Shown here piece after piece: positions 1 through 63,743 of a DNA stretch of 64,000 nucleotides. The stretch is from Paraphysomonas bandaiensis. Lineage: Eukaryota > Protista > Chrysophyceae. Where the stretch lies: positions 47,156 to 111,155 of the forward strand of contig CBFFRP010000366.1 of NCBI GenBank assembly GCA_965644295.1, written 5' to 3'. A model generated the notes under the pieces. The model made no database searches. It saw only the letters and a program-made list of their open reading frames with translations, and was not told the origin of the DNA. Made by a program: the position numbers and the translations under genes. Each line of letters begins with the position of its first letter. Position 1 is the stretch's first letter.

Positions 1-554
1 TACCTGGCCTTGGTGATGTATGGATGATTGTTGCATTTGTAGCTGATGTGTGCGCTGAGCTAATGTTGGGTTGGGTATGTATAACGCGCTTCCTCACACA
101 TAAGAAAGGGGTGGAAAATAATACTGATACATTTTATGCATTTCTGTCTTTGGTTGGTCATATCATGAAGTATATCATGGTATTTGGACCTCAAGAGCCT
201 ACATACATTGTTGTGGTGGATATATTCATAGGTATTATTGCAACCGTTGTTCCAGGGCGACAAGCTAGACATCAGAAATCCGTTGCTGAGGTGAACTACA
301 ACATCTATACTTTTAACATCGAATAATTTGTTTATGCAGCATACTATTCAGTCAAAGAGAGACTTCGTTAGTTACATTTCCCATGAACTCCGAACCCCTC
401 TTAACACTGTTTATATGGGTATCCAGCTGCTCTCAACTCGCACTGCGCCATCGACGAAAGAAAGAAAGACCGAGGTGCACGACATTGTGAAGGACATAGA
501 ATCATCGTGTTGTATTGCAATAAATATTCTGTATGACGCAGCCTCGTTTGACAA

Positions 555-1742
555 CTCAACTGTCACCTCACAGTTTGGTTTGATAACCAAGACTATGGCT
601 CGTGATAACGCTAACTACTATCACTGTATAGGAATCAAGACAATGAGACCAAAGAAGTGATATTATTACAGGTAAACTTATGTTTCAATCAACTATACTC
701 GAGTGACTGACTCCCGCGAAGAATCAGCACGCAAACACCACCGCTAGTGATGTCAGGTCGCTAGTACCCAAGTATGGTTAACATAAACAAAACTGAGTCA
801 CAACAGAAACATAAAGTATGAAAACAACCGCAGAGCTGCACACACACAACGTCATCCATGTTACACTGTGTTGCAACACACAACCACAACGCAGGCTGTG
901 TCATACAAGCAGTATAACAATATACAGTCATGTCAACTACTCTATCAAATACGGTTGTACAACACTGTATAATGTATATCGTGTTGCATTCCTCATAACT
1001 ACAATTGTACTTGGAAAATACTAGCTAACGTACACTTTCATAACATAACAACAATCTTGCAGCAACATGCCACCTGCACGTCCTTAAGCTCAGAGTGTAT
1101 GTCTAAGGCGAAGAGATCCAAGAAAAGACGTGGTAAAGCCTCCCTGCAAAGGTATGAGGAGTCTCGGAGAAAGGCTATCCGAGAATATGCTGCAGAGCGC
1201 CGTGCACATGATATTGCTGCACGATGTCCTCAAGGTGTCTTAGACAAGTCTGGTAAGCTCTGCAAAGTAGTTCCTTATCTCTACAGTTCTTCCGCAGAAT
1301 GTGCACCCGAGGTTTGTTCCGCCGTATTGGACTTCTACCTCCAGTGCCTGCTCGCAATTTGCTTCATGCCCCACCTAATCATGGCCGGTACGTAAACACT
1401 CTGTATGATGCTGACCTCGCTGCCGGTATGGATTACAACTGTGAGTTTAGCGTTGATGAGTCTGGGTTGGATGTGGTCTGGGTGAAGACTCTGAGACCTA
1501 TATCCGAAGGTGAGGAGCTGATTGCTGACTATGGTGAGTGGTATCACCGCAAGAGTAAGCTACGCCTTAAGTGAGTAGTCATTTCTCCTTTTGTGGTAAC
1601 TAATAATTGTTGTTATCTCTGAGTGTTTTCTTGGTAGTTAGTCTATCTAGTGTCTTGTAGCCCCTTAGGAGAACACTATAGCCACGTAAGTAAGGCACGC
1701 GAGATGCCACGTGGTCACATCTGAGTGATCTTCTTGTGGTTA
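555..1742 (-). mobile_element. LTR plus partial 5' leader of a Gypsy-family element related to the element at 57583, inserted in the kinase HisKA exon
   Basis: Minus strand from 1719 reads TGTGACCACGTGGCATCTCGCGTGCCTTACTTACGTGGCTATAGT versus TGTGACCACGTGGCATTTCCCATGCCCTATCTACGTGGCTATAGT at 57583. Shared hairpins at 707-727 and 569-597. ACAA on both sides (551-554, 1743-1746). Confidence 0.85.
1099..1574 (+). CDS. Small SET-domain (lysine methyltransferase-like) ORF inside the LTR, frameshifted or spliced, with basic NLS-like N-terminus
   Basis: GRYVN...NCEF...VWVKTLRPISEGEELIADYG matches SET motifs III/IV. RGLF and AVLDF in adjacent frames rebuild motif I. N-terminus MSKAKRSKKRRGK. Confidence 0.75.
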
Positions 1743-3570
1743 ACAAAATCGAGGGTGGAAACATGCAGTTGGATCGGAAGGATGTATCCATCCGAGATTT
1801 ACTATCCACTGTCATTGATCCATTCGGCATACAGGTACGTAAATAGCTGGATTATTTGTAACACTAAATTGATGTGTGTCAGGCCCAGCAAAAAGATATA
1901 ATATTTGCGCACAGTGATGACACACACATTGACCCTTCCATCGATGCCGAAGATAGTCATATTTATGTCGATGTAATGAAATTCAGCCAAGTACTCCGTA
2001 ACCTAGTATCGAATGCACTGAAGTTTACTCCTACTGGAGGAAGGGTAGACGTGTATGCTTTTCTTACAACAAGGCATTCTTCCGATCAACTGGACAAATA
2101 TGAGCAATCAGCTCCTGGGAATAGAAATACCCTGTCGTTATTCCGGAAGAGCTCGGGTGTGGATGATCGATCCTCTGGATCACAATACCATGTGCCGCGA
2201 AGCTCACAGAGTGTTGAGACTGCAAGTATACTACGGATTGAGGTGCATGACACTGGGCCTGGTATATCTGAGGTAAAAATGACTGTACCTTGCGTCATGT
2301 GAATGTACTAATGGAAATGCGTAGGAGAACCAGAAGCGTTTGTTTAACGAAATTGTTCAGTTCAATGCGGCAGAACTTCAAGATGGTGGTGGTTCTGGTC
2401 TAGGTTTATGGATATCTAAGGCAATAATAGATCATCATGGAGGTAGATTAGGCGTATCATCTATTCCTGGCAAGGGTTCAGTATTTTACGTCGAGGTGGA
2501 TGTACTACCTCGAGAATACCTTTCTCATGACCCAGTAGATTCACCAGCACAACAGTCTCAGTTTCCCCGTGTAAATATGTTTCCATCTGTTACATACATG
2601 TTGCGCTCTATGATGCGTAAGCCTATCAAAGTAGATATTATGGGAAATGCAGTTGAGCTGTCAGAGGCCTCAAGTAGTTCGAATGATGTAGAAGAGTTAA
2701 CTGTGAACGACGTGGAAATAGGTCGAGTGCTAGTAGTGGATGACTCGGCTGTTAACCGGAAGATGATGTGTCGCATGTTGTCACCGCTGGTGGGATCTGT
2801 TTCTCAAGCAAGCGATGGTGCAGAAGCAGTTAAATTAGTACAAGACGCATCTGATGTTAGAGACCCTTACGATATTGTATTTATGGATGTAAACATGCCT
2901 GTCATGAATGGCGTGGAGGCAACTCGTATGATGAGAGAGGGTGGATATAAAGGATATATTTCATTCCTTACTGGAAATGCGATGCCAGAAGAACGACCAT
3001 CTTTCTTCGCTGCTGGAGGAGATGATGTCTTAATTAAACCCTGTACTTTCATGGATCTTCAAGGAGTTCTGACAGGTTTGTCACATATTCTATTGTCCGG
3101 TTTCGACGTCAATAATTTTGTATACAGCTGCACATAAAACTTCCTTGGCGTCGATTGTACAATCCGCACCATAGTACATGAGAAGGCTCTTGTGATATAT
3201 TCAGAGTTAGTTTGTATCAATGATATTTTATTACCATTCTGTTTCTTGAGTTGTCGTTTTTGTAGACTGAATATTTATGCTCAATATTCTGCTGATAATG
3301 AGTGTACAGGAGTTACTTTCGTTTAAATTGAAAACCTTTAAATTAGTAAATAATATTTCATAAAAGTCAACGTGTTCTACTTTAACGATAGCAGTTTGTG
3401 GGTGTTCTGTATTAACTATTTATAGTGATGTGCTTTCGTATAGGAGTCGCTATATCATAGATACATTCACCGGATAGCGAGTATTAGATGCCCTACGCAT
3501 TTGAGGGATCACTGTGCTCTCGGGGATTGGGAGCAACTGTGTTATGAAACAATATTTCGTGATATGCGAG

Positions 3571-4846: not shown

Positions 4847-6277
4847 ATGGCATTTCGAAAGCGCAAATCAGGTTCTCTTTGCAACGATGAAGATGACGCG
4901 ACAAGAAGCTCAGAGCGTGCTCAGGAAATAGAGATCATTGGGCGTTGGAGACCAGTTGATTCGGCCAATGAGTCATTCCATCTGCCTCATACGGTTGATG
5001 CAGATCGATACCCTACGTTTAATTTTCGCACTGCCAGCTTCCTCAAGATATTCTTGCGTTTTGTTACAGTATCCCTTGTGACGAAAATAGCCCAGGATAT
5101 TGACCCTGCCGACTTGACATATGACTGTGGATCGGTAATTTTGCTTTCATTGTGTTCTATATATAAGCTTCTTGCAATTTGGATTCGAATTTATGGAGAA
5201 CAACATGCCCCAAGAGGTGTAATACGTCATTCGCGACCATTGCGTGAGCAACTTATATGGTACCGAGACCACTTTAAGGATTGTTATCCAAGGATTGATT
5301 CTCTGGGCATACGATTCATGGAAATTGTGACAACGAACTTTTTATTTGATAGTCGATATTCAAAGCAGTTGTCTCATAATTTTAGATCTATTTTACGTGG
5401 TATTGGCAATGTTGTAGCTGGCGATGAGAAGTTGCTGCATTTCTCAGGTGTGTATATTGATCAATTGAATACTATTATTAACAAGTGATTTATAGGCTAT
5501 AGTCCTAATATAAGAGTAGTTTATATGAAGCCTGAACGAATGGGCTTGTGGGTGTATGAGTTGTGTGTGAAGCTCTCCAATAAACACGCATATATGCTGG
5601 ACATGTGGTTGCATGATGCAATAGCTGATCTAGGAGAGTCTATACCTGTCAGCGCTGTAGTGGAACACTGGGGCAAAATCATACACTCTTTTAATTCTAC
5701 ACGAATGAGTAGCACTGTTCTTGTATTCGACTCGTATTATCTTGATGAAGCTGCACGAGAGGGACTTGCAAGGAAGAAAGTAAAATATATCGGGGCTGTG
5801 AATCCACAGCGCTTCCAAGCACTCACTCGTAAAGTTCGTGAAGGTGTCAATATACGAGGACAGTGGAATGGACTGTGGAATCAACAGCGTAAAGAACTCA
5901 TAGTTCATTCTTATACGAAGGATGGCAAGAAATATACCGCCTTGTCCAATGCTTATCATAGATCACCTACGAGGTCTACCACCAATTCTGTGCCTGTGTG
6001 CTCCGACTATGGTAAGATGTTTGCAGCATGTGATGTATTCAATTTACAGATTAAAGAGAGGATATGGCCTCATCGGCATGGTGGTGGAGGGCATCTAGGC
6101 GAAAGAGGAAAGTTTAGCTCGTTTGCGTTCGGCTGTGTTCTGCAAAATACATTCCATGCGTATTGTAATATTCGTTCGATAGATACAAATAGTATTGATT
6201 ATTATAGTTTCTGTAACGCGTTAGCTAGCGAACTGTACACACATGCTGATACTCTATCTAAGGAAACTATAGAATAG
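4847..6277 (+). CDS. piggyBac-like DDD transposase, apparently intact (intron 5448-5495)
   Basis: VAGDEKLLHFSG|YSPNIRVVYMKPERMGLW, LVFDSYY, YGKMFAACDVFN match the three piggyBac catalytic Asp motifs. Inverted subterminal motif AAACCATAGTCTG at about 4635 and about 6350. Confidence 0.85.
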
Positions 6278-6525
6278 AGGGGTACCGTGATTGCTTTGCT
6301 CAGTGTTGTAATAATTCCACTTTATATCATTGGTTACAGACTATGGTTACAGACTATGGTTTAGTCTAATTTTTAACATTGTTGACACATCATTTATATT
6401 CACTTAAAATAAGTGATGCTAACGAAGATAGCAATTGGTCTTAATCACACTCATTAACCACAGTCAGTAACCACACTTTTATAAGAAGTAATATATTTAC
6501 ATTCAATTAAACTTATTGTACTACT

Positions 6526-8001
6526 CTACTGAATAGTACTATCAGAGAGTGTGCTTGCATGCACATACAAATCGTTTGCTAGTGTTTGACTATAACTAAA
6601 GTACTCAAAATCTTCGGAATCGACATTCATTATATGACGATATAATACGTTGAAAGTGTTTTGAAGTATACAACCGAACATAAACGAATTATGCTTTGCC
6701 ACCATTCCTGTGTGGCCATCATACCCTGTGTTTGATTTGCATGTTGTATCTGTCACAGGCATGTAACAGCTTGGAATAGTCATCACAAACAGGAATATAT
6801 GTTGTAAAGGCTTTGGTTGCCCTCCTCGTGAACGCATTACTTAATGCTGTGCGTTGCATCCCATCATTTCTATGAGCGTGCACAATTATTTGCTTCTGTC
6901 TCTCGTTCCACAACCCATTCCATTACCCCTCATATCTACTTCGTCTCGCATCAGTCGTGTCAACGCAGGAAATTGCTTTGGATTAATAGCTCCTATAAAT
7001 TTCACTCCCTTATTATATGCAATATTTGCCACCCAGCATCATCCAAGTAATACGAGTCAAAAACCAGGACTGACTCAGTCTTATGGGCAGAATTAAATTG
7101 ATGTATGATATTGCCCCCCAGTTGCTGACAACGTTGTTGGAAACAGGTATAGACTCCCCCAGTGGTTTGATAGCATCGTGCAGCCATACATCCAACATGT
7201 AAGTCAACTTGTGTTTCAGAGGTGCACATATATAGCTCATACAGCCACAACCCTTCCTTGTCCGGTTTCATGTAAACAGCACGTACATCCGGACTTTTAC
7301 CTTCAAATCAATATTTTATTACGTATAGTAAGCAATATTTTGCTAGCACCTGAAAACTGTAGAAGCTTCTAATCTCCAGCAAAAGCACGACCAAAATCCC
7401 TCTAAGGATGCTTCTGAAGTTCGAAGATATATTTTCAGAGTAGCACTTGTCGAACGTAAAGTTGGAAGTGAATATTTCGGCAAATCGTATGCCAACGACG
7501 AAATCGTAAGATAATTTCTTCTGAACTCTTTCGGTAATACTCAAGTTGTGAACGCAGTGGACGGATCTTCTTCTGGACACCAGTAAACACGAACTGTTCG
7601 CCATAAATCCAAATTGCAAGCATCTTGTATATCTTACTCACAGATAACAGCACAGAGTCCCCTCTGTTGCAAAGGAGGTGCTCAGGATCTATATCTCGGG
7701 CAATTGTCGTGACAAGTGCAGGTGTAACAAACGTTAGAAATATGCTCAGAAGCGTTGGTCCTTCGCAGCTTAAACGTCGGATATTGGCTGAGAAGGTCTG
7801 AATCTGGCTAATGAAACGATTCATGTCTCCAATCAATCCGCTTCCACTGCTTTTGAAGCTTCTTCGACTCAGCCCTAATTTTGGCTTGTCGTGCATCCTT
7901 CTCTGTGCGCTCTTATGGAGACATCTTTCAGTATAAGAATGAGTCGAATATAATGAAGTTACCAGCACATTGCACATCATTTTGCCCTGTGATTGGGTCA
8001 C
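6526..8001 (-). pseudogene. Degenerate paralogous piggyBac-like transposase, tail-to-tail with the first copy
   Basis: Fragments MKPDKEGLWLYEL, YMLDVWLHDA, VLVFDSYYLDD, FMFGCILQNTF spread over several frames. Confidence 0.85.
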
Positions 8002-8566
8002 TGGGAGTGTTGTCTGCTGGTGTCATATAAATTCACATACTTCATTTGAGTCGAGTCCGAATTGACTGTTACGTTTTTTCCGTACATAGCAACAGTATTT
8101 TCTGTTTTTTTGAGCTGTGATGGTGAGTTTGAGTGTGGTTAAACCAAATACAGATGTTAGCCACTAGGACGAGTTGATGAACAAATCAATTTCTTGAGAA
8201 GGAGATTGAAAGAATCTTAATTCAGGAGTGATTCCCGTTTAGGCATTGCGTAAGGTTATGTCACGTTAGAATTTATATTATTGATAAAATTTCTGAAGCT
8301 AATGGGAACGCAATGCCGGATGTATGAATATTTCAATATATGACGAACGACATAAATGAGCAGAGAAGACAATAAGGGAAAATATTGACGGGATATAGTT
8401 ATAGCAATGTAAATAAGCATGCTTCAAGGTAGTAATTATTTCAGCCATGGGAAAACAGGGAGAATATAAATACCACGCAGGAGTCACAGTCACGAAAATA
8501 CAACGCCAGTATACTACGTGACACACTGTGACAACAACACTGCATTGACATAATTATTGGATGCCA

Positions 8567-9116
8567 TTAGTTAGAGTTGCAAACGCCGCAAGTTGAGCAA
8601 GTAGACCAGTACTTCCAGGTGTTGCCGCCCCACCCGAACACCATTTTAGCTGAAAAATATAAACATTAAAACATTAAATATATACACTCAGTATTGAATA
8701 GCCATACAGTATGTGTGAGACTATCAACATGAGTCACACTTACCGCAATTAAGATTAGTGCTGGGGTCACATGGAGCCTTCCCACCACTGCAAGATGACC
8801 AGTTCATGTCGTTGACCTGCCACAGACCAACATCATAACTGCCCCCGTTACCATTCTGATTAACAGCATTCGCATTTCCACCGCTCTCGTGATTCATGAT
8901 ACACTCACAGCTCGACTGCTTCCAACCAGAGTACTTCGAACACCATGAGCTGACACTCTGATAGTTAGTGGATGACCCGCACGGGCATGATCCACATCCT
9001 CCCGGACAATTCCCTCCACAGGTAGACGACGTCACGTTAAAGTCCACATGAGGGTTAGTGGTGCCTGCACAGGCGATAGCAAGAGAGCACAGGAGAAGAA
9101 CAACGGCTTTAATCAT
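8567..9116 (-). CDS. Secreted Cys-rich lysozyme/SLT-like protein (copy 1, 2 exons)
   Basis: Signal peptide MIKAVVLLLCSLAIACA; HESGGNANAVNQNGNGGSYDVGLWQVN matches the lysozyme-superfamily catalytic Glu and GLxQxN motif. Confidence 0.85.
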
Positions 9117-9701
9117 TCTTTTAGTTATTAATGAGACTGTATTTATCTTAGCAGATATACACACTCATATCATCTCATATCATACGTATGGTATCATCAC
9201 TCATACATGCGTACCACATGCAGCAGTACACCATACTGGTACAGTACAGTATATACGCTACCGGATATCTGAGATATCCCCATGCAGCTTTTGTGCCTGT
9301 ATTTCGAAGGATAGAAAGTTCTTTTTCTTCAACTAAAACTGAAACTGAAAACCATATGAATCGCCTGTACACAGCAACCTCTCGACCATATTCAAGGAAT
9401 ATTCATGTACAGGTGTGTCCAATACTAGTACCAGACATCTAGTTGTGCCTGTATCCAGTGAAATACAATAGCAATGAACACATATATACAGACGTCACTG
9501 TGTCGATATAATACAGTAATTAGGATTTTAGGGGTAAGCAAAAATGCTTACCACAAAAATGCTTACCCTTGTAACAGAAAATGACCTAACATATGCATGT
9601 ATGTATGTATGTATGTATGTATGAATGCCAAGACAACAACTGCCTGTTATTATAACACAACTCTACAACACACACATACATTCATCCAATCAACTAAAAG
9701 A

Positions 9702-10251
9702 ATGATTAAAGCCGTTGTTCTTCTCCTGTGCTCTCTTGCTATCGCCTGTGCAGGCACCACTAACCCTCATGTGGACTTTAACGTGACGTCGTCTACCTGT
9801 GGAGGGAATTGTCCGGGAGGATGTGGATCATGCCCGTGCGGGTCATCCACTAACTATCAGAGTGTCAGCTCATGGTGTTCGAAGTACTCTGGTTGGAAGC
9901 AGTCGAGCTGTGAGTGTATCATGAATCACGAGAGCGGTGGAAATGCGAATGCTGTTAATCAGAATGGTAACGGGGGCAGTTATGATGTTGGTCTGTGGCA
10001 GGTCAACGACATGAACTGGTCATCTTGCAGTGGTGGGAAGGCTCCATGTGACCCCAGCACTAATCTTAATTGCGGTAAGTGTGACTCATGTTGATAGTCT
10101 CACACATACTGTATCGCCATTCAAAACTGAATGTATATATTTAATGTTTTAATGTTTATATTTTTCAGCTAAAATGGTGTTCGGATGGGGCGGCAACACC
10201 TGGAAGTACTGGTCTACTTGCTCAACTTGCGGTGTTTGCAACTCCAAGTAA
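9702..10251 (+). CDS. Secreted Cys-rich lysozyme/SLT-like protein (copy 2, intron 10075-10168)
   Basis: Near-identical inverted copy of 8567-9116; exon 2 AKMVFGWGGNTWKYWSTCSTCGVCNSK*. Confidence 0.85.
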
Positions 10252-11280
10252 AATCACTTCTGGGCTAGTTTGCGTTACTGCATTTGTCCATGCCTACATC
10301 TATTAAATGTTGATGTTACATTTATGAATTTAGGCTCTGACCGATATGTTTTTTTTATGTAGTTAGAGTTATGCCTGATCTCGATGCAGTCATTTTGCCA
10401 TGTGTGTGTATTACTGAAGTCGGTATGATTATACACTATTCAAGTTTTATTAATGCAAAAATTCAAGTGTTTGCCACGAATAATATGCAGCAAAGCCATT
10501 GTAGATGAAGCATAACCTAAACTTCGAAACAACTTCAAGAATATTTCAAGAGAGTTTAAGTGCCATATCTGAAGCTGTACAGGTGGTTAAGGGTAGTGGC
10601 ATCCAGTTCTTTTAGGGTTTGGGTTGCATTGTGTTTACAAGGACATTTTGTACCTCATATCATACACACATCATTCTATCAGGTGCACTAGCAGAGATTA
10701 AGCGTATTGTATATAAATGTGATGATAACTCTAATTAAGGCAATAAGAAGCCTTTCGTGCGACTACCACTGTTCATATTCATCATCACACTTATGTACGA
10801 ATTTCAACACCTCACAGTTGTCATTTCCTCACAGTTGTCATTCCCTCAGTTTCCTTCTGTGGTAGGAGTGCATTTGTTGTAGCTGTTATATATATAAATT
10901 TGGGGGTTTCTTGCTATTCCCAAAGCATACACAGTATATACATTCAATATGAATCTCATTTGTTTTCGTAATGTTAATCAGGAAACAACTATTTCTTCTT
11001 ACAGCAATCAAGCTACTAATAGCTTTACAATCTAATATGAAGTTTTCAACATCATGAGGATAAGCTACAATTTAACATAGTGATAAGGAGTATCGTCCCT
11101 TGTCTATACTTTAAAACTCTGAATTTTCGCCCTCGTTTCAAAACTTGAGCGCGGGACGATATAGCCTCCTTATTACCTGGGGTTAAATATAGCTAAAAGC
11201 ATACGATATATCATTAGCAATTCTGTCTGGGTATGTTACCGGGAAAATTTTGTATCGTGACGAAATGGGCTCGTATCAGT

Positions 11281-11662
11281 AGTCGTGAATGTCTTATTAT
11301 TATTAGCAGTAGGCGTGTACGGTGTACTATTCAGAACTAATGTAGCATTGCAATTTAAATAACTAGTGCTTAACTCTGATATCCTACTATTTAGCGCTAC
11401 GAAAGCTGCTTGTGCGTCACCGCTAGAGCACCAACGAGTAACCATTCTGACTTCAGGATTTTTGAGTCCTTAAGGTGAACAGCCGATGCGTGACTTCAGC
11501 AAGCAGTCCAATACCGAGGATGCCCTTGAGGTGGGCCCATTCCCGGATGCCTGTTTATTCGTCAAGAAGGCCTAAAGACGTCTACACAAGTGACACTTAT
11601 ATTAGATATTAGTGTCCCTTGTACCACACAAGCATTTGGCTATGAGTGGGCAGAACAATATC
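11281..11662 (-). repeat. SINE-like repeat (copy B, internally deleted)
   Basis: Same conserved blocks as copy A. Confidence 0.8.
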
Positions 11663-12699
11663 TGCTGACTATATATGCATATATATATATATTTCTAGTA
11701 CAACATCACTACTAGTTGATAGTTGAGTAGTTTGTAATACCAAGGCATCAGGTAGCTGGCTATTACAAGTGTAGCAATCTTGGGTGTAGTGGAGATGGTG
11801 GATTATAAGGTTGTTGTGATATGAGGGCCAAGGCGAAGTAGTATAGGCAATAGCGTGAGATAAGAGGTAGAAGATGGTTAAGACAAGGTCACGAGATACG
11901 AGTATTAAGGCCAGATACAGGGTTGGAGTGTACCGGGACTATCCGTACATACGGACGTAACGGACGTTTATTGTAACCCGTACAGTATTATGGTAGTATA
12001 AGTAGTATGTAGACGTTGTATGAGACAATATGGAGTAGATATCAAAGGACAATAAGAGATTGCTGTAGGGATATTTCTGGAAGTAGAAATTAGCTATTTA
12101 TGGCTAGAAACCCATCTCTAGAACAGCTATGGAAAAATAGGCTAAGTTATACGAGTTTTTAGATAGGACAGAATCATAAGGTAAAAGGGATATAATAAGC
12201 ACAGTTAAGTGTTAGTGAAATTAAGCGCTATCTATCTGCCTACTGTCCATTGCGCGCATGGATAAAGAAGGTATGTCCGCTGAAACCCGTATGGATGACA
12301 CTCAATTATCCGACGTCGCCACACAAGTTTATAATTTGGGGGATTTTAGAATATCCAAATAGTGTTGTTGTTGCTATTAGCGCTCAATACTCAATACAGT
12401 ACAATACTTGCTGTAGCTTAGAAGCTGTAGACATGCAACTGAGATAATTGTGATCGTAGGTAAAAATAAGTTTTACCGTTTTGGGAGCAAGTGAATGTAT
12501 GGTCCAAAGTCCAAACGTCCATAGAAGTCAGTAGATTTATAAAATCAAAATAAACGAACTTTATAACATCGCTTTATTGTTTACTCTGAGTATTAGTTGT
12601 TGATTTAACCTCATGTCATATCAACGTCAAAAATACACACCAACAAGTACCCGACGAGTTGATTCTGCACTCAATAATTAGTCATAGAATTTAAAAATC

Positions 12700-15600
12700 T
12701 CAATTTTCAAAACACAAATTTTCGACAACGTTATCTCCTGTTACACGTCCAGAACTATCCGAACTGGACACCCGAAGCAGTTGATTTTCGACCCGTTCAA
12801 CGTTATCGTCAGCTGAACTGTCATGTAAATATTCCGCACTCATGTTATCCTTATCTGAACCGTCATCTTGTAAATACTCCTCACATATGACATAAGGAAC
12901 AGCAGATGAGGAATACTTTCGGTTCTCGCCGGCGGGGTTGTTTTCACGGCTGAATGTGCTCTCCTGGCTACTTCTACTGGTACATTTTGATACCGGTGAT
13001 ATTTCAATAGACTGGACTCCTCCAGTGCTATGAGACGGAGACCTCACGGAGTCAAAACTAAGTGTGAGTGTTCCACACCTCCCCTCATCATCCACTGAGC
13101 TCGTGTCTACCTCGGAAGAGCTTCTGTTCAAGTGCTGCCGGAAACTCATACCCAGCTTCGTGACACATGGCGTTTGTGACGCACGGCGTGTATGATGCCG
13201 TCCTCCACTCTTGGACGCCCTCCGAGCTCCACTTACACTGGTCTTCCGAATATTTCCACGCGAATCTTCTTCGGAGGATTTAATTGAGTGATTGTGAGGG
13301 GTGCCCTGTGGGCTACACACTGTATGGACACGTTGAGTGTTCTTCGTTCCGATAGTAGAAAGCACCAAACTACGTATGCTTGTCCTAGTTGCTTTGATAC
13401 TCTTCTTCTGATCGTAGCTGCTGAGTATATCTCGCCGCCTCTGTAAATGCCAGATTTTCATTCAGTTAAAACTTAGCAAAATATATCCACCTGTAAATCT
13501 TCGGTAACAGCATCGTCTGGGAAAATAACTCTGTTCAGGTCACGAATCGATAGTTCACCCGTCTTCGCAATATCAATTCTAGAAAAAAGCCTCTTATACC
13601 TTTCGTCACTACATAAAAAATATTTTTAGCACAACAGGTACGCATCCAGAATCGCTACCAAACCTATAATGTAAATTAAGTACACTCAACATCTCCCTAA
13701 ATTCAACGGGACTAATAGCCCCACTCATATCTGAGTCAATCTCGTTGAATAGACACCTCAGAACCTATAAACGAAGGTGAGTTGTTAAAATAAGCACGAC
13801 ATTTGGAGTTAAGCCACCTGTTTTTGATCACCCACCGCTCCTCTTAATCTGCGCAGAACTTTTTCTCTTAGTTCATTGCAAAGGTTTTGGTTTTTTTCCT
13901 CTTCCTCAACGATTGTACCTATACAGTGTACAAAACAAGACATAATATTTTAACATTTTCAATATAAGCACTGTAAAAAGGGAATGCTCACCTATTACGT
14001 CAACATTCAGCTCTGCTATAGCAGATATAACTGATGCAATCTTGACTGTCTCTCCTATCAGAGGTATCACCAGTACCAGTGGAACAAGCCTGAAACTATC
14101 GATTACCAAACTAAATGGCCTTCCACACATGGATTGCAAATACGATATAACACTCACATTAGTATCTGCCACAACCATGAGTGTGGTAGTGCCCTTTCAA
14201 CTGCAGTCACAAAGTTCGATATCCAAAGTGATAAATACAAGGAGTTAAGCATAATTGCTATTTCAACAGCCCTGCACGTATCGTATCACCCTCAGGAATA
14301 TTAGCAATATATAGATACAAAGGAAAGCACCTGAAGAAGAGCTCGGGGCTGTTAAAGAGGAAAATAGAGCTCAAATCTTCACTCAGTTTTACATCAGCAT
14401 CATCAGTGGATATCTCGTTATTGTGAGCTCGTTTGAAAAATGACATACCAAAATTTCCTTTGGGGTTCTTATCCAATCTCCCAATACCACCAATAACGGT
14501 AGATTCATTAGACTGTAGTGGCTTTGGTCGTACTGTCTTTACCATTTTCCCAATGACAGCTGAAATGGACGATCTCCGTCTACCATTTACGGGACTTGTT
14601 TCACTGGGTGAATGACGAATAGTAGTATCAGACACAGCGTCATTCTTGAGATACTCGTCGCTGCCTAATGAGGGGCGGAAAATAAGCTGTCGTGGATTAC
14701 GGTTATCAGTTACACCAGTAGATTGCATTGGTGCAGCAGGAAGCCCTGAGATATCATAACCACCTCATTAAATCGGAAACATAGCGGCAAGACGCTATAC
14801 TTACCCTCGCGAATTCGATTTGTATTTCCTCCAATCCATATTTTCATTTTAGTTTTCTTGGTTTTGTTCTGTAGATCTCGAAAGGACTGCGACAACGCAA
14901 TTGATGAATGCAAAGTTTATGGAGACATCTAGTCGAACAGTGTGAGTAGTGAATTCACCTGACCGAGACCACCACTTCTGACACTTTTCTCTACATGTAT
15001 ACACACGATAATCATATTCATTCGAGAACAGGAAATAGCTTACTCATATTCTTCGCAACTGTTTGAATGATATTGGGTTTCTTTTTGTTATATCGTCTGG
15101 GTATCTTTACATCAGCAAGACGTTCTTCGTCGGCCTGAAATGAAAGCAAGGTATAAAAAACGCCCCTGTATTATGCTCAGTGTCCCACCTTGAGGTGGTT
15201 GGCTTCAACAAAAATGAGAAATTCTTCATAGTCATCTGTGGAAACTACTCCTGCCCTAGCCATGAGCCTAGCATACAAACTCATCAGTGTCAGCACTCTA
15301 AACCAAGTGGAAAAGAGAATACTCATGTAGACGGCGATGTACGTACTCTTACATATAGAGTTGAACAAATTGAGGTCAATACTTCCACAACAAAGAGTAA
15401 GTATACACAGAAGTGTGATATTCAACTTACTGTTCCTCATAAAACTTCCCCACAAAGTAAAGTGCAAGAGCATACACACATATAAAAAATCCACAGAAGA
15501 AAAATAGTTTCAAGTGCTGCTTGGTGCATTTATTGGAGACCTGACGTAGTTCTCTTCCAACAGCAACATACACGCTCCACTCGAGGCCTTCGCCAATATG

Positions 15601-16400
15601 TTGGGGAGAGGAGAAGTCCTCAGACTCTGTATATGTTTACCTTAGTAATATCAAATGTCTGAACGAAAAATATATGACGTGCCTTGCTTCTCTTCCACAT
15701 ACTTGAAGTCGCGGCAGTTACCAAACTCGTTGCCGAGATAGTTTAATCGAATATAATTAGCACCACAAAGCAACACCATGATCACCCAACTAGAATTTTG
15801 CACATTAATTAGCTTGAGTGAATATCGGGCCAGACACCCGCTTAGATATGCACCATAGTCAAAACTCCCAGGCAGCCAATAAGTGTTTCGAAAAAGCGCA
15901 TATATGATCTTGAACTCGATGACTGTGCGCTGGGGTGAGAATGGCAGCAAACGCATCGTGAAAAGGTACCAACTGAGCCACGTCTCCTGCGCACGATCGC
16001 AGAGTTCCAATGTATCCGCTAGAGACATCGCATGCAGTCTGGAGTACGTTTTTGAGGTCATCATCGACACCATCATTATATACAAGGAATGAGCAACAAT
16101 AAATGTAGCAAGAAAAAAGAGAACATATCCCACAAAATCAATAGCTGTGAACCAAGAATCTGTCTCAGAAGGATGCTTGGTAGCCTGATACATAGCCACA
16201 GTAAATGACACAAACCCCATTATCATGAGCTCCTTGTATATCTTCTGAAGCATTTGATTATATATAACCGACCCCTTTAAAGCATTTTCAGCAATTCGTG
16301 TAAAGTTTTCAAAGAGAATGAGAAAAAGTATCGTACCAACGAATGCAATTGACGCAACATCACTATCAACTTTACTTAATATCCCAAATTGGAATGGCAT
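12700..16400 (-). CDS. MLO-family multi-TM protein with C-terminal EF-hands, multi-exon
   Basis: MLQKIYKELMIMGFVSF resembles the MLO TM2 motif; EF-hand loops DSDMSGAISPVE (about 13710) and DIAKTGELSIRD (about 13550); Ser-rich tail. Confidence 0.7.
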
Positions 16401-16430
16401 ATCTACAAGGATCTCACCCTCCCTCCCTCT

Positions 16431-16568
16431 GTATGTATGTATGTATGTATGTATGTATGTATGTATGTATGTATGTATGTATGTATGTATGTATGTATGT
16501 ATGTATGTATGTATGTATGTATGTATGTATGTATGTATGTATGTATGTATGTATGTATGTATGTATGT
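16431..16568. repeat. (TATG)n microsatellite
   Basis: Perfect tetranucleotide run about 30 bp upstream of the MLO start codon. Confidence 0.98.
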
Positions 16569-17832: not shown

Positions 17833-17936
17833 AAATAGTAGGAAATCCGAGTTAAGCACTAGTTATTTAAATTATTTTGCTACATTAGAACTGAATCTTA
17901 CACGCCTATTGCTAATAATAAGACATTCACCTCTAT
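17833..17936 (+). repeat. SINE/LINE 3'-tail remnant (copy C)
   Basis: AAATAGTAGGA...GTTAAG...TTTTGCTACATTAG...ACGCCTATTGCTAATAATAAGACATTCAC matches the tails of the other copies. Confidence 0.75.
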
Positions 17937-18405
17937 GCATAATGCATAGAAGTATAGTATAATGGTAATGGATATGGGAACAGAGCTTAGCACATTTGTT
18001 TTGTAAGATCTCTAGATGTGTAGAGAGTAACACGCCAAGTAAAAACTGAATACAGTGTCGTGGCATTCAATAAAGCTACAAATATCATCAGCACAAACTT
18101 TGAAATGACTGGCGGGCCTAATTCTCAATGGAGCCATGTATTATGAAACATGTCGCCTGTTACGTCAGAGAAAACAACTTGATAAACAGTTCTATAGATA
18201 ACGGATAGTACAGCATGTTTGGCATTCTTTTCAATTCCCTGTATTATTTCATGACTTAAAAATAAAACGTGCTTTCAATGAAAATCTTAGCATTGCTACT
18301 TTTTTACTTGAAGAAAACCATACATTTCTACAGCTGCTACCGCCTCCAAAATCACAAATCGCCGCCAGGTATGTGACCACGGGTACTGTCACAAGTCACA
18401 TCACC

Positions 18406-21400: not shown

Positions 21401-21555
21401 AAGTCAGTGATTCCTAAACCATCTGCAATGCCTCCATTCTCTGCAAACCATCTTTGGAAAGCATCTATTTTGGTATCATCAGAATTGTCTGCAATACAGA
21501 GAGAGAGAGAGAGAGAGATGACTATAGTAACGGTAGAAATAAATAAAGCCTTCAT
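18406..21555 (-). CDS. Tandem double SET-domain (Rubisco-LSMT/SETD3-like) methyltransferase with signal peptide, multi-exon
   Basis: Two sets of motifs: GRGILAT/SFWKPYLDVLP/APYSDMFNY/EDYG and IGTVAT/EFWPYLRLLP/VPMLDFVN/ENYG; hydrophobic N-terminus; predicted last exon ends ...KITGEL*. Confidence 0.85.
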
Positions 21556-57582: not shown

Positions 57583-60500
57583 TGTGACCACGTGGCATTT
57601 CCCATGCCCTATCTACGTGGCTATAGTATCACGCTATTGAGTCACATGCATGGTTACATTGACTTTTAGGACCCTATGTTGGTTTAAGACCCTATATCAG
57701 GACCCTATATATTGCTTTAGGACCTTCATTGTGTTCAGGATACATATTATGCAACACCATTTGGACATTGGTAATGTACCACAGTGTACCTACATATTGA
57801 GCCAACGTTCGGGTATGATGTCCAATTTTTATCTGCTGCTGATGATGTACGACTATGATCTGCTGCTGGTGACTTCGGTCGATGTGAAACCTGCTGCAAA
57901 TTTATATCAAAGTTATGTGGGCCCGTATTCCTGTGCAGCAGTTGCAGTATATACTTCCATATACATACATACATGTATTACCCGTACTACCCTATAGGGG
58001 GGCAAATACATGTGACCATCACAGGAGAGAAGTCGCTATTATACACTTGAGGTGCACGAGTGTTCATGCAAGGCTTATTGGGGTTGGATTGCAATGTGGT
58101 ATGCGTACTATACGTACTATATGTACCGTATTTATGTATTTCCTGGATTATGGGGTTTTCAGTCTCTGGTAGGGTATAGATACGTAGTATACGGTGTACT
58201 CTCGGCATATGGTGGTGAGCCATTCCCTATCAGGTTGCTGTGTATTTTTCAGTTTTGATTGAAGAGTTACACAACCTGTGGTGGTGTGATGACACCACGT
58301 GTGTTGCACCATGTTAGGAGTGTGTGTGTGTGCATATATGCTCCTGTGGTGTTTATCACTTGTTTTAAGTTAGACCAAAGCTTGGTGCTAGTGATCTTGG
58401 GTGCCAGCGGTATACCATTGCGCGGTGACTCTTCGCGGGAGTCACTAACTGAGTTTAGGTCTAAACTTGGAAAAAAGTGTTTTAATAATAATACCGTTAT
58501 TACTGTGCTTGTTGGTTCAGTGTAGGTGTTGTTGTAGTTTTATTGTTTACGAGCCAACACCCTGGTTATCAAACCGGGTGTTGTTATAGTAAATATTTAC
58601 TTTACTGCTCGTACAGAAATTTCTGTCTTTGCGCTGTTGTTTCACACTCTTATAAGAAACTAACTGCGACACGCTTCTTTGGGCTTGATTCTTTGGGCTT
58701 GTTGTCTGTTGCCTTCGGTTGCCTGTGGTTGTTGGTTGTCTGTTGCTCTCTGGGTGTGAGTTGTCAGTAGTTGTTCTCTAGGCTCTTTGTTCAGGGGTGA
58801 TTGTTTGATACACAGTGTGGTGACTGAGGAAATTCGGTTCTTTTCGAAGTCAATCGACCGTGGATACCGCCTGTGTGTTAACTGTTGTCACTTGTACAAA
58901 TCCGACGGGTTCAACGGGTTTGAGTGTTGAGTGTTGAGTGTTGAGTTTTTGGATTCTTACGCAGGGTTGTCTTTGGGATTTGTCTTGTGGTGTCTTGGTG
59001 TGTTGTTGAGTTCTGGGTCAGTGGTTCTAGGAGTTGCCAGGGTTGCTTGTCTCAGTGTGTTAGGGAAAAGTTTGGTGGATATAGTCTTTGAGGCGGAAGT
59101 CCTTCTCATTAACCATGTCTACTCCGACTGGTAAAACGAGGAGAGGCGGCAAGAAAACTCCTGGGAAAGATCAGGAAGCCGCTGGTAGTGGTGAAACCAA
59201 ACAAGACGCTGCTGGAGGTGTGCAGGATGTTGTTCAGGAGTCTTCTGCTCCAAACATCAATCCAAACCAGGAGATTTTGGATACAGTTCGTGCCATGTCT
59301 CAGTCTTTTACAGAGGTGGCTACTGCAGTGTCTAACCTCAGCAGCAGGATGCAAATATTGGAGAATAGAGTACAAAATGTTGAGGATGGTGAGAGCAGTC
59401 AGTCTCAGGCTTCTGTGGGCTCACATCAGCGGCAAAAGGTTACCAAGCGCACGTCGAAACACAAACGTCAGCCGAGGTATTCCACTCTGGAAAACATGGC
59501 TAAGTTTCGCATTATTCCTCAGGAGGAAGATAGCAACAAGGAGGACGATGGTTCGAATCCCGATGTTGATGGTGATGGTGTTAATGATGTGCCTACCCTC
59601 ATGGATAACATCTTTAAGGGCAAGAAAGCGGGCAAGTTATTCAGGGATTTGAAGAAAAGTTCTGAGGTGGCTAGTGCCAAAACAGTTACCATAACTAGAG
59701 AGGAAAGGAGGTGTCATGTTCGCATCAATGACTTTAAGTTGGGTAAAGTGGCGAAGGCGATCAAAGACATCTTAGAGTTTCAAGAGCAAGAAGAAACTGA
59801 GGTGCGAATTCAAAAGGTACTTTCAACCAGTTTGAAGGCACATCTGCGGAATGTGTACAGCATCACACATGCGCAGCTAGCACAAATGGATGTTTCGGAT
59901 TTGCTTCTCATTGTGGCTCAGGAGACCAAGGTGTTCAATTGCGTGGCATTTTATAATGAACTCAGAGATTCCTTGAAACATATCCAGATCATGGACTGGA
60001 AGTATGTAAATGCTGTGACTTTTGAGGCATTCTATCATCAGCAATTGAACTTGATGCAGTCGTTCCAAACGATGTTGTCTATCATGTTGGTCTCAAACAA
60101 AACATGGTGTCCTCGTATCGATGACAAAGAGTACGGATTGATAAGACTCTTTAAGACTTTGAATGACGGGACCTATGTTAAGTATGTGTTGGGGTGCATG
60201 TCGACTAATAAATTTGACTCTATGAGCGAATTTTTCAAAGAGTATTCGGCTGTACTCTTGGATCATTATCAAGTAACCATCGCGTACCGACAGTTACCTA
60301 TGGAGTCGACTACGATGTTTCAACAGAAGCACGAGGACTATCTTAAGAGGAGAAAGGAACTATTCTCTCAACAGTCCAACAAACCTTCGTTGAACAGTCG
60401 TGTTGATTCTAAACCAAGGGTTTCGCAAGTGTCACATCTAGATACTTACGATGAGTCTGGAGGAAACTATAACGATGAGTGGGATGATAATGATGGGTAT

Positions 60501-63500
60501 GTACCCAATGATGATGATTTGTGGGATGCTCCGAGTGAGACTTGGCGGTCCAGTAATCTGGAGGTACATGACGATAAACAAGTCGCTATGATGACAGATG
60601 TGAAACCAATGTCGGGTAATGACGCAGCACTTGATGGGGAGCGTCGTGTTAACTCTGATAGGTCTCTGTCAGCCATGCATAGTAGGCCAACTGGTGCTCA
60701 GAATAGTAAGACCGATAAGTATGGGTGTCTTAGGAAAATCATGTATGGCAAGTGCGACAAAACAGACTGTCCATATAATCATAATGCGAAATGTCTGTTG
60801 GATTCTGCGTCCGAAATGCGGGACAAGATCGATGCGTATCTTAAGTCTGCGGGAAGCTCGGAGCAGAGGGACAAACAACCGACCATCTTGAGGAGGGATC
60901 ACTTCGGTGATTCCCGCCCTTGATGGTTCGGTGGATGTGACGATACAGACAAGGAGGATTCCAATTCAAAGACTCGGGATGAGAATGATGAATGTTCAGT
61001 GCATTCTAATGATCTTAATGAGTTTGCGAATTCCTCCAATGTCTGTATCGGGGATCAGGCTAAGCTGTATGCCTGCTATCCTTCATCCAAGAGCTTCTCT
61101 TCAGCGCACACTATAGGAAGGATTACTTTAGATAGAAAATTTGGAATAGAGGAGTTAGTAAAAATATTGTGTGACACTGGAGCCCTCTCAGCCAATTATG
61201 TGTCGAGGGATTTGGTGGACAGATTGCGGAACAAACTAGAACCGAGCCGTTTTTATAAAGCTAAACACCGTGTGGTATTGGCGGATAGTAGAACGGTGAA
61301 GGATCTCAATGAAGGAGTCAGATTAAATTTAGTGCTGACTGATCCGAAGAGTCATACCTATCAATATACGGGTGAATTCTTTGTGATTGATATGACGAGT
61401 AATGATATTATTTTGGGGTTGCCTGCGCTGACTGGAAAATTATATCCTTTCATGTGTGCTGTTATGCGTGAGGCACATGACACTCAAATCGAGGGTGTCT
61501 CCGATAATGAAAATTCGAATGTGTTGTCATCTCTGGCAGGGGACACGGTTGACTCTGATGACCGTGTGCACCCATGGTCAAGAGCGAGTGATGCTATTGC
61601 CCCAGAGGATGAGGAAACTGAGTTACCGGTTCAATTCAAGGATGCGTTGACATTCTTAGGAAAGTCTAGGGAGGAAGCCCTCCAAGACTATCATGAGCAG
61701 ATAGAGACTCATGTCAGCGATGAAATGAAAAGTGAAACTAAGATTATGGAATTGTTGTCAACGAAGGCTGAAAAAGTGTTTGTGCCTGACGAATGGAGCG
61801 GTGTGAGAGGTGTGGACCCTTTGTCTCTAAAATGGAAAAGCACTCTCCCGGATCGAATGAAACCAAAGGCTCGCCCGATCAATCCTAAGCTGTGGGAAGC
61901 TTCGGAAAAGGAGTTTCGGCGACTGTGTGGCTATTTCTACCGAAAGAGTCGTTCTCCTTGGGCTTCATGCCTAGTGGTTGCTCCCAAAGCCACTCCTCCA
62001 TACATCCGTTTTTGTGGTGACTATGTGCAAATTAACAAGCACATGGAAGTGGGAAATTATACGATCCCTAATGTTAAGCATGAGTTGGACAAGATTATCA
62101 ACTTTCCGCTATACATGGATATAGATTTAACAAATGCTTTTCATCAAATTCCATTAGATGATGAAACTTCTGAGCGCCTATCAATTCAGACGCCTTGGGG
62201 GCAATTTGCTCCTAATTTCATGCCAGAGGGTATTGCTCCGGCCACGGGTGTTTTACAGGAAACTGTGAGAGAAATATTCGATGATTTCTCTGAGTGGGCC
62301 ATAGTCATTTTCGATAACATGCTTATATTGGCTAATGATGCCAGGGATGCTTATGAGAAGTTCGAAAAGATCATGGACAGATGTATTGAAAGGAATGTGA
62401 AACTTAAGATGCCAAAAAGCTGGTTGGGGTTTAGAAAGGTGGATTTCTTTGGATATGTTTGCCGTCACAAGTCATATGAGGTTAATCCCGATAAGAAGGA
62501 GGCTCTCGGCAAGATTCCAATGCCTACTAACACCAAACAGGCCAGATCGTTGCTGGGTAAAGGGGTATTCTTTTCTAGTTTTACGCCTAGATACTCTGAT
62601 TTAGTTGCTCACTTGACTGACATGACAAAGTCGAGTTTCAATTGGGATAAGTCCACATGGCGGCATGACTACGAGGCAGAGTATCGTCGTTTCATTGCCG
62701 GACTACAAGACGCTTGTGAGCTGTTTTATCCGGATTATAATCTTGAGTGGACATTGCGTACTGACGCTAGTGAGTTGGGAATAGGTTCAGTGTTATTGCA
62801 AAAGAAAATATTAGAGGATGGGAGCATACAGTGGCAGCCTATAGCTTTCATTTCCAAAAAGTTTTCTGCCCAAGCTCAGAAGTGGTCAACTATAGAGCAA
62901 GAGGCATATGGAATTTTCTACAGTGTTAAACACTTGGCTTATTACTTAATAGGCAAGCAATTCACAATTGAGACCGACCATAACAATCTATTGTGGATGG
63001 AATCTTCGGATGTTCCAAAGATTACACGATGGAGGATATTCTTGCAGTCTTTCAACTTCAGCATTCGTCATATATCTGGTGCCAAGAATTGGTTGGCGGA
63101 CTGGTTATCTAGAGAGCATCAGGTTGCTATACTCTCTGGAATATTCCCAGAGGAGGAATATGATGACGCCTATTTCATGGGGGATGACTGTAATGAGTAT
63201 GAGTACTTTAACTTTCTGGGTAACTTTATGAACCCGGATGATCGAGAGATTGAGGACCCTCCAACATCTCATGTATCACCGGAGACGGCGTTGCGTGAGG
63301 TTCATAACGCGCGAGTTGGACACATGGGGGGAAGGGCTACCTGGATACGCTTAAACAAAGAGTTCCCGGGTCATAATATTCCTTACAAGGTTGTTGAGGA
63401 TTATATCTCTAAGTGCCCAAATTGTGTGAAAACGAGGTTGGCTATGAAGGAGGCTCTTATCCCGATCGTACGAAATCTCAAGCCCCCAAATGCTCGTAGC

Positions 63501-63738
63501 GCGATTGGTATAGATGCTGTTGAGATTACACCTCACGGTGCAGAGGGATATACACATATCAACGTGGTGGTCAATCTTTTCACCAAGTTTGTGTACCTTG
63601 AACCTGTCAAAGGTGTGACGGCTCTTAATCTTGCAAATACTATATGGAAATACTGGAGTCATTACGGTCACACAGATCTAATAATCTCGGATCAAGGACC
63701 GGATTTGACTTCAGATTTGTTCAAACAGTTGACGGAGT
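57583..63738 (+). mobile_element. Ty3/Gypsy LTR retrotransposon (5' LTR and leader 57583-59114; 3' part interrupted)
   Basis: Starts with TG at the 5S breakpoint; gag followed by PR-RT-RH-IN order. Confidence 0.92.
59115..60923 (+). CDS. gag: Gag-like protein with CCCH zinc finger
   Basis: Position upstream of pol; N-terminal coiled coil; C-x8-C-x4-C-x3-H (CLRKIMYGKCDKTDCPYNH). Confidence 0.8.
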   Translation: MSTPTGKTRRGGKKTPGKDQEAAGSGETKQDAAGGVQDVVQESSAPNINPNQEILDTVRAMSQSFTEVATAVSNLSSRMQILENRVQNVEDGESSQSQASVGSHQRQKVTKRTSKHKRQPRYSTLENMAKFRIIPQEEDSNKEDDGSNPDVDGDGVNDVPTLMDNIFKGKKAGKLFRDLKKSSEVASAKTVTITREERRCHVRINDFKLGKVAKAIKDILEFQEQEETEVRIQKVLSTSLKAHLRNVYSITHAQLAQMDVSDLLLIVAQETKVFNCVAFYNELRDSLKHIQIMDWKYVNAVTFEAFYHQQLNLMQSFQTMLSIMLVSNKTWCPRIDDKEYGLIRLFKTLNDGTYVKYVLGCMSTNKFDSMSEFFKEYSAVLLDHYQVTIAYRQLPMESTTMFQQKHEDYLKRRKELFSQQSNKPSLNSRVDSKPRVSQVSHLDTYDESGGNYNDEWDDNDGYVPNDDDLWDAPSETWRSSNLEVHDDKQVAMMTDVKPMSGNDAALDGERRVNSDRSLSAMHSRPTGAQNSKTDKYGCLRKIMYGKCDKTDCPYNHNAKCLLDSASEMRDKIDAYLKSAGSSEQRDKQPTILRRDHFGDSRP

Positions 63739-63743
63739 TGTAA
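60924..63743 (+). CDS. pol: Pol (protease, RT, RNase H, truncated integrase), in frame with gag
   Basis: DTGA; RFCGDY, DLTNAFHQI, MPEG, IFDN; TDAS...EQEAYG...TDH...ADWLSR; H..GH...CPNC, IGID, ISDQG; third integrase catalytic residue (E) missing. Confidence 0.92.
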   Translation, partial: WFGGCDDTDKEDSNSKTRDENDECSVHSNDLNEFANSSNVCIGDQAKLYACYPSSKSFSSAHTIGRITLDRKFGIEELVKILCDTGALSANYVSRDLVDRLRNKLEPSRFYKAKHRVVLADSRTVKDLNEGVRLNLVLTDPKSHTYQYTGEFFVIDMTSNDIILGLPALTGKLYPFMCAVMREAHDTQIEGVSDNENSNVLSSLAGDTVDSDDRVHPWSRASDAIAPEDEETELPVQFKDALTFLGKSREEALQDYHEQIETHVSDEMKSETKIMELLSTKAEKVFVPDEWSGVRGVDPLSLKWKSTLPDRMKPKARPINPKLWEASEKEFRRLCGYFYRKSRSPWASCLVVAPKATPPYIRFCGDYVQINKHMEVGNYTIPNVKHELDKIINFPLYMDIDLTNAFHQIPLDDETSERLSIQTPWGQFAPNFMPEGIAPATGVLQETVREIFDDFSEWAIVIFDNMLILANDARDAYEKFEKIMDRCIERNVKLKMPKSWLGFRKVDFFGYVCRHKSYEVNPDKKEALGKIPMPTNTKQARSLLGKGVFFSSFTPRYSDLVAHLTDMTKSSFNWDKSTWRHDYEAEYRRFIAGLQDACELFYPDYNLEWTLRTDASELGIGSVLLQKKILEDGSIQWQPIAFISKKFSAQAQKWSTIEQEAYGIFYSVKHLAYYLIGKQFTIETDHNNLLWMESSDVPKITRWRIFLQSFNFSIRHISGAKNWLADWLSREHQVAILSGIFPEEEYDDAYFMGDDCNEYEYFNFLGNFMNPDDREIEDPPTSHVSPETALREVHNARVGHMGGRATWIRLNKEFPGHNIPYKVVEDYISKCPNCVKTRLAMKEALIPIVRNLKPPNARSAIGIDAVEITPHGAEGYTHINVVVNLFTKFVYLEPVKGVTALNLANTIWKYWSHYGHTDLIISDQGPDLTSDLFKQLTEL

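Follow-up and report, generated by a model that had tools for sequence, protein, structure and literature searches.

A SET-domain gene housed in the long terminal repeat of a Ty3/Gypsy-type element, present here as an internally deleted derivative

A hybrid histidine-kinase gene of Paraphysomonas bandaiensis is interrupted by an insert that carries, on the strand opposite to its own, what looks like a SET-domain protein. Is this a gene of the mobile element, a passenger or a remnant, and what would its product do? We approached the question from the window, by which we mean the whole stretch of 64,000 nucleotides that was analyzed and which contains intron-bearing genes, i.e., is eukaryotic. 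Related copies were read from contigs of seven public runs aligned on the window (X1, X2, X5, X8, X15, X17 and X18), all of them assembled contigs. Near-identical sequence is present in 20 of the 24 public runs listed, which come mostly from marine metagenomes and from two organisms.

Ends of the insert and a second LTR in the window

Contigs of X2 and X5 contain the empty site, seen as a joint from 527 to 1720 with four letters that fit either side. When 532–1719 and one TCTG are deleted, the histidine-kinase exon is restored (..NILSDLLVVNKIEGG..). Beyond 1719, other contigs have purine-rich loose ends resembling a polypurine tract (PPT), as expected upstream of a 3′ long terminal repeat (LTR), and beyond 532 other contigs enter an internal region, including a 3,636-nt contig in X1 that extends past 532. 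The target-site duplication (TSD), the empty-site joint and the departures on the PPT side and the internal side together indicate that the insert is a solo LTR of 1,188 bp on the minus strand. It has the features of a Ty3/Gypsy solo LTR, namely a short TSD with an empty allele and the same sequence adjoining a PPT or an internal region elsewhere. The first-pass annotation had recognized an LTR but placed it at 555–1742, 23 bp away from the true ends; the repeat ACAA at those ends is due to chance, the kinase junction that they leave can be read but is inferior, and the empty-site joint rules them out. The features of the insert and its surroundings are as follows.

295..3137, plus strand: interrupted host gene for a hybrid histidine kinase (HisKA, HATPase_c and receiver, from Pfam domains; exon restored)
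528..531, plus strand: left copy of the TSD, TCTG
532..1719, minus strand: solo LTR of a Ty3/Gypsy-type family, 1,188 bp, TG...TA ends, from the empty-site joint and contigs departing at 532 and 1719
532..1098, minus strand: 3′ part of the LTR; it has homology to the second LTR, two conserved hairpins and a putative antisense promoter zone at about 960–1098
1675..1719, minus strand: conserved 45-bp 5′ terminus of the LTR, common to several LTR subfamilies
1720..1723, plus strand: right copy of the TSD, TCTG

LTR elements usually, though not universally, have TG...CA termini and a tRNA primer-binding site. Here, both LTRs of the window end in TG...TA, and a 12-bp palindrome without TGG follows. 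The LTR end had no match in collection scans of viral or JGI metagenome contigs, and Rfam returned a match at chance level only (E 0.5).

At 532, contigs enter an internal region whose first part has its homolog in the window from 58589 on; this sets the second LTR at 57583–58588.

57583..58588, plus strand: 5′ LTR of a related Gypsy element, 1,006 bp, TG...TA, with an unrelated slot at about 57629–58029 and no SET gene
59116..63743, plus strand: gag, followed after a TGA by in-frame pol, in the order protease, reverse transcriptase (RT), RNase H, integrase; the integrase is cut off

The best solved match of the RT of this element is Ty3, and its domains follow the Ty3/Gypsy pol order, an assignment made on the pol of the related element, not on that of the SET-bearing subfamily itself. 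This RT had no close relative in viral contigs.

As had been noticed before, the first 45 nt are common to both LTRs (48-nt match, 85%, E 2e-9), as are two hairpin sites further downstream, and the middles are unrelated (global score −151 versus −169 ± 15 for shuffles; about 1110–1673 in the first LTR and 57629–58029 in the second). In addition, a weaker homology between the two extends over everything that lies between the position of the SET start codon and the 3′ end of the LTR (579 versus 559 nt; score 58 versus −110 ± 17 for shuffles). This homology places the unrelated slot of the second LTR at about 57629–58029 instead of 57750–58230, where it had been put, and the LTRs thus share far more than was claimed. 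Behind the shared 45-bp end, at least five other sequences occur, seen as different consensus loose ends at 1674/1675, one of which is of the second LTR's type; two further sequences depart from the shared part at 1042 and 1053. The shared terminus, the homologous 3′ part, the unrelated middles and the several alternative loose ends show that the LTR does have a variable slot, bounded by a fixed terminus on one side and by a conserved 3′ half on the other. The contents of these other slots are known from loose ends of at most 30 letters, and only that of the second LTR is readable; five frames in it gave no Pfam match below E 0.1. The earlier proposal that the related LTR holds different cargo is hence right as to the sequence, while no protein family was found in its slot. 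Likewise, the idea of a Gypsy lineage with exchangeable LTR cargo holds for the antisense SET gene in the 5′ part of a Gypsy-type LTR and for the alternative sequences behind the shared end, the other middles being known as different sequence only. A 60-nt GT..AG segment with a TATG run (57931–57990, minus strand) lies in the second LTR, and its excision would join two antisense frames into about 85 aa; it matched no Pfam family, and we did not take it for a gene.

Deleted and intact versions of the SET gene

The SET gene lies in the 5′ half of the LTR, antisense to the element, and its undeleted size would be about 245 aa. In the window it is split into two parts.

1099..1346, plus strand: 5′ part of the SET gene, with a basic patch resembling a nuclear localization signal and a family-specific N-terminal region; past the deletion, reading continues out of register and ends with a stop at 1395 (99 aa)
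1339..1346, plus strand: deletion junction with 8-nt microhomology; about 80 codons lost (motif I GLF, the YxG tyrosine and the SET-I region), with a frameshift
1339..1574, plus strand: 3′ part of the SET gene (NHGRYVNT ... NCEF ... GEELIADYGEWY)

The frame at 1257–1574 matched the Pfam SET model with E 4e-4 and 21.2 bits, just below the cut-off of 22.4 bits, and SET clusters of the ESM Atlas at 0.97, bearing out the earlier description of a basic-led, antisense pair of SET-like frames. The upstream frame is 53% identical to residues 9–86 of the relative P0002 (94 bits against the family profile), and the downstream frame is 79% identical to the C-terminal part of this 245-aa protein. Residues 87 to about 165 of P0002 have no counterpart in the window, and this missing third is the most conserved, with 25 of 81 columns invariant among five relatives; the window copy thus has no complete SET domain in one frame. 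A contig of X2 departs behind 1346 reading C-G-T-E-N-P, and a contig of X8 enters before 1339 reading W-S-T-P-V-P. Both loose ends agree with the family alignment on either side of the gap, indicating that undeleted, near-identical copies exist. By comparison with these, the window copy is a derivative that arose by a frame-shifting deletion at the 8-nt microhomology.

The deleted form occurs beyond this insertion as well: all of X1, X15, X17 and X18 contain it, and in X1 it is attached to an internal region. Its summed contig depth, which is neither copy number nor expression level, exceeds that of the intact forms, suggesting that the SET enzyme is dispensable in cis. Summed depth in X2 is 5,000–25,000 on the LTR versus roughly 60–250 on the host gene, again not a copy number, and in X5 it is 110,000–256,000 over the SET gene versus mostly 8,000–29,000 over the rest of the LTR, again not an expression level. 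Such depths would suit a cassette that is present in many copies and strongly transcribed, but we give them no weight as evidence.

Other contigs and relatives also contain the SET segment, so that it is not an unrelated fragment peculiar to the window copy. A diverged contig of the P0002 type spans 1517–1719 and so includes the last SET codons, the 3′ UTR and the LTR terminus (record 16 of X2 and record 26 of X8); a further SET variant reaches the terminus through a joint from 1549 to 1675 in X2 and X8. Loose ends matching P0002 and P0003 were also found in RNA runs. Nineteen substitutions are listed for the diverged type between 1446 and 1571, 12.5 of them synonymous and 6.5 non-synonymous, giving a dN/dS of about 0.10 (Fisher p 8e-6) in a single pairwise comparison over 42 codons, for which variants were pooled from three contigs of X15 and X8. 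The diverged type has the P0002 residue at 42 of 42 codons, and unlisted non-synonymous changes are unlikely because they would have broken this match. The dN/dS check that had been suggested for the cargo thus gave the value expected of a constrained gene. Versions separated by a dS of about 0.7 occupy one and the same LTR frame, and their 3′ UTR and terminus are homologous. The link between intact gene and LTR is assembled from short contigs, with no single contig spanning a whole intact gene in a whole LTR; read in this way, the contigs show a SET gene wholly within the LTR, with apparently intact and diverged versions in sister LTRs, and the codon comparison shows purifying selection on the predicted coding sequence. 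The presence of more than one version inside the element ends, under purifying selection (one pairwise estimate), agrees with a transposon accessory gene. Intact and deleted versions coexist in the same organisms, and both appear in ocean metatranscriptomes.

The SET family, probable antisense transcription and competing explanations

Intact relatives scored 30.9 (P0002), 28.5 (P0003), 22.4 (P0004), 23.3 (P0005) and 35.5 bits (P0006) against the Pfam SET cut-off of 22.4. A profile built from five relatives found 448 clusters at E≤0.001 among 1.84 billion representatives, 103 of them at E≤1e-10 and 35 at E≤1e-30. Among 44 aligned members, 41 matched Pfam SET (E≤0.001) and 14 the PR-domain model, so that the SET assignment of the first-pass annotation stands for the intact relatives. 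Of 154 proteins, motifs were counted in the 50 that align over almost the whole profile with at least 60 bits; the remaining 104 were left out. These full-length members have 229–427 aa, and nearly all carry the SET motifs: the YxG tyrosine (48/50), the DYG tyrosine (47/50), the motif I glycine (43/50) and the glutamate of ELxxDY (49/50). At least seven K or R occur within a 15-residue N-terminal window in 48 of the 50. The canonical RFxNH is not found; its asparagine is kept in 48 of 50 and is followed by T (27) or S (21), indicating that NT is a family signature and not decay. The window copy had been read correctly as NT where SET enzymes have NH, but this is a family trait, not a defect of the copy. 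The family also lacks a post-SET cysteine (zinc) cluster.

The best solved profile matches are the histone lysine methyltransferases KMT2C, SETD8 and EHMT2 (E about 1e-8), with no clear subfamily. Among the solved-structure matches, LegAS4 is a SET protein without the H, reading RYINF, and it is described as an active enzyme that methylates H3K14. AlphaFold without an alignment gave pLDDT values of 41 and 36. The SET gene had no close relative in viral or JGI metagenome contigs, where only distant SETs were found (29–50% over short stretches), and no match in a phage collection or PHROGs. One of the distant SETs is encoded by a giant-virus contig (L001:7971-8396; 141 aa, with NWTRYING and GEELLADYG) and is 29% identical to P0002; others with a similar motif occur in bacteria. 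Other family members may be host genes. In the window itself, a host gene at 19104–21615 (minus strand) has a weak match to the Rubisco-LSMT substrate-binding domain and is probably a host SET-type gene; it was considered as the source of the LTR cargo and rejected as unrelated (tblastn E 0.87).

RNA contigs from three studies cover the gene.

1101..1622, plus strand: likely antisense transcript, its extent taken from RNA contigs of X15, X17 and X18 and its strand from a GT..AG joint

They span 1101–1622 in X15, a poly(A) library, 1130–1622 in X17 and 1116–1516 in X18. In X17 and X18, only the gene has RNA cover; in X15 this is nearly the case, with a further low-depth piece at 873–1023. DNA contigs continue on both sides. 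That cover is absent upstream of 1097 in X17 and X18 is a weak hint only. A plus-strand GT..AG joint from 1386 to 1450 is present in X5 and X17, not in X2 or X8, with a short side of 28–29 letters, and three more plus-strand GT..AG joints within the LTR, with a short side below 30 letters, are found in X5 only. A cryptic 63-nt in-frame intron (1388–1450) removes RYVNT...NCEF from part of the RNA in X5 and X17, and its acceptor hinges on base 1449, which is T in many copies; the deleted form is also present unspliced in RNA libraries. In X1, a contig that starts at 1427 passes the LTR end and continues into the internal region, so some of the RNA cover represents something other than a short transcript. 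These data point to a transcript antisense to the element, with strand and ends inferred from assembled contigs, and we infer a promoter zone at about 960–1098 from where the RNA cover begins.

The reading that we prefer, with a probability of roughly 60%, is that the insert is a Ty3/Gypsy-type solo LTR whose U3-side half holds an accessory SET gene, likely transcribed antisense from an LTR promoter; that the intact form is a predicted nuclear lysine methyltransferase, probably acting on histones; and that the window copy, internally deleted, would be catalytically dead. We think it unlikely that the element maintains the gene for a product other than a histone writer, such as a pseudo-SET protein serving as binder or decoy, or an enzyme that methylates Gag, integrase or a host silencing factor. 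Inactive SET proteins exist, and the N-T/S motif, the lack of a post-SET zinc cluster, the fact that every solved enzyme is only distantly similar and that none points to a clear subfamily, and a family-specific N-terminal region would all suit such a product; however, motif I and both catalytic-site tyrosines are highly conserved across members that are about 25–40% identical, the basic N-terminal patch points to the nucleus, and active SETs without the H exist.

More improbable still is that a host or giant-virus SET gene was captured by the LTR as a passenger, so that the selection is the donor's history, the cargo is decaying and, if anything, the antisense RNA is what matters. The abundance of the deleted and frameshifted window copy in DNA and RNA runs and the similar motifs of the distant giant-virus and bacterial SETs speak for this, but the two versions at a dS of about 0.7 sit in the same LTR frame, so selection most simply acted inside LTRs; otherwise, two paralogs would have to have been captured independently into one slot. 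Nor is the window's own host SET-type gene related to the cargo. We give very little credence to the original proposal of a minimal enzyme like chlorovirus vSET (about 120 aa, SET only), made from the window copy by a splice at 1152–1297, a frameshift or an internal ATG at 1299. Plausible donor and acceptor motifs are present, and the database holds a 91-aa gene call from the internal ATG (P0001), but the 1152–1297 joint occurs in none of the seven runs, contigs of X1, X15, X17 and X18 read through it, and any such product would still be without motif I and the YxG tyrosine, which lie in the most conserved third. Programmed frameshifting was also rejected as a rescue, with about 80 codons absent, and full-length members are longer than a minimal SET and have a conserved N-terminal region; the minimal-enzyme reading is thus largely refuted.

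In the preferred reading, an LTR-housed SET accessory gene, the 3′ half of the LTR would fire an antisense promoter into the slot, yielding a short polyadenylated mRNA for a nuclear SET protein. It is established for retroelements that U3 is copied into both LTRs and survives LTR–LTR recombination. The gene would accordingly be copied into both LTRs in each round of reverse transcription and would persist in solo LTRs, making each insertion, we suggest, an expression cassette complete in itself. The protein would be directed to the nucleus by its basic N-terminus, and there, as predicted from its motifs, it may methylate a histone lysine and tilt chromatin in favor of the element. Were the protein to act in trans, deleted copies such as that of the window could keep spreading. 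The deletion itself probably occurred through template slippage or end-joining at the microhomology, and U3 slots were probably exchanged by template switching between co-packaged RNAs. A bolder version is, in our view, less likely than not. It supposes that, in a Gypsy lineage of marine microbial eukaryotes, U3 serves as a gene cassette that can be swapped and that brings an antisense promoter of its own. Its main cargo would be a histone methyltransferase, active and acting in trans, from a large N-T/S SET family of about 100 clusters that is as yet undescribed. Each insertion or solo LTR would then mark chromatin against silencing, with deleted "cheater" LTRs riding free and the other slots holding further effector genes.

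Known systems, priming site and other features of the window

Chlorovirus vSET is a parasite-encoded SET protein of about 120 aa that ends in GEE-x3-YG and has an N-H motif. The LTR family has this end in common with vSET but differs in being longer, with an N-terminal extension, and in having N-T/S; vSET is not among the best 60 solved matches to the family. Protein-coding sequence within a retroviral U3 or LTR is known from MMTV sag and HIV nef, which lie on the sense strand and are not known to be chromatin enzymes, unlike the antisense SET gene described here.

SET accessory genes are carried by HarbingerS and MuDR of Phytophthora (PMC12730594) and by Plavaka of red algae (PAG2), and SETs have been captured by Helitrons (bioRxiv 10.1101/2025.02.11.637652). 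As here, these are described as separate accessory ORFs on a mobile element, proposed to alter chromatin; the carriers, however, are DNA transposons, whereas here the carrier is an LTR retrotransposon with the gene inside the LTR, antisense. DNA methyltransferases have been reported in Gypsy, DIRS and LINE elements (PMC5890265; bioRxiv 10.64898/2026.05.21.726589). Among them, KnitGypsy-Dnmt3 (PMC5890265) and the DAM-LTRs and EpiLTRs (bioRxiv 10.64898/2026.05.21.726589) likewise place a chromatin-modifying enzyme on a Gypsy-type element, under purifying selection, but as DNA methyltransferase domains, described as lying in or beside Pol, in contrast to the stand-alone gene for a predicted protein methyltransferase in the LTR. 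The words "SET" and "antisense" are absent from the main text of the EpiLTR paper (bioRxiv 10.64898/2026.05.21.726589). The antisense ORFs of plant Retand elements, with a TRP28 domain, are similarly conserved, antisense to gag-pol and near the element's 3′ end; as reported, they lie between pol and the 3′ LTR and encode no known enzyme, whereas the SET gene is inside the LTR and is hence duplicated and left behind in solo LTRs (PMC11963269). In crapaud of Podospora, one family also has several diverged U3 halves on a conserved R-U5, for which template switching was proposed; that variation is discussed as promoter or enhancer variation, whereas in the LTRs described here a protein-coding gene makes up at least one of the U3 types (PMC10787394).

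Our searches of the literature on SET domains in mobile elements and on LTR accessory ORFs gave no description of an LTR with a SET gene in it; most subscription journals, Repbase Reports and supplements were outside this coverage, so a description may exist. The feature itself is real and unusual: an LTR houses a conserved SET accessory gene, of which the window has a deleted derivative. Chromatin enzymes encoded by transposons give the clearest access to the ways in which mobile elements resist host silencing or turn it to their use. DNA transposons with SET genes and retrotransposons with DNA methyltransferases are known, and a protein-methyltransferase gene in an LTR would be a new arrangement: such a gene is duplicated at every replication, survives in scattered solo LTRs (here within a host kinase exon) and can be swapped between subfamilies. 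The natural coexistence of intact and deleted versions makes it directly testable whether a retrotransposon writes its own histone marks, and the search exposes a large SET family with a non-canonical N-T/S motif.

Several further observations were made in the window, one of them at the priming site.

58589..58600, plus strand: perfect 12-bp palindrome in place of a tRNA primer-binding site

Both LTR subfamilies have the TG...TA end followed by a perfect 12-bp palindrome (58540–58625 in the window, and the internal start beyond 532). Just downstream of the palindrome, 7 nt can pair with a site that lies about 40 nt within the LTR; this pairing is kept by a compensatory change from one subfamily to the other, and the palindrome region folds at z = −6. 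This arrangement suggests priming that would be independent of tRNA, and the region recalls the hairpin site described for fungal GalEa Copia elements (PMC5445492).

In the related element, gag ends with TGA at 60921–60923 and pol continues in the same frame, suggesting stop-codon readthrough. Around residue 462 of the pol ORF (60924–63743), the RT catalytic motif is IFDN, not YxDD. Unrelated AT-rich sequence with a palindromic start (63744–64000) cuts off the integrase and is possibly another insertion. Directly upstream of this Gypsy element is a perfect tandem array of a 306-bp unit (55950–57582; 5.3 copies, 100% identity), and elsewhere in the window, at 39865–42798, an open frame of 977 codons has no Pfam match at E 0.1.
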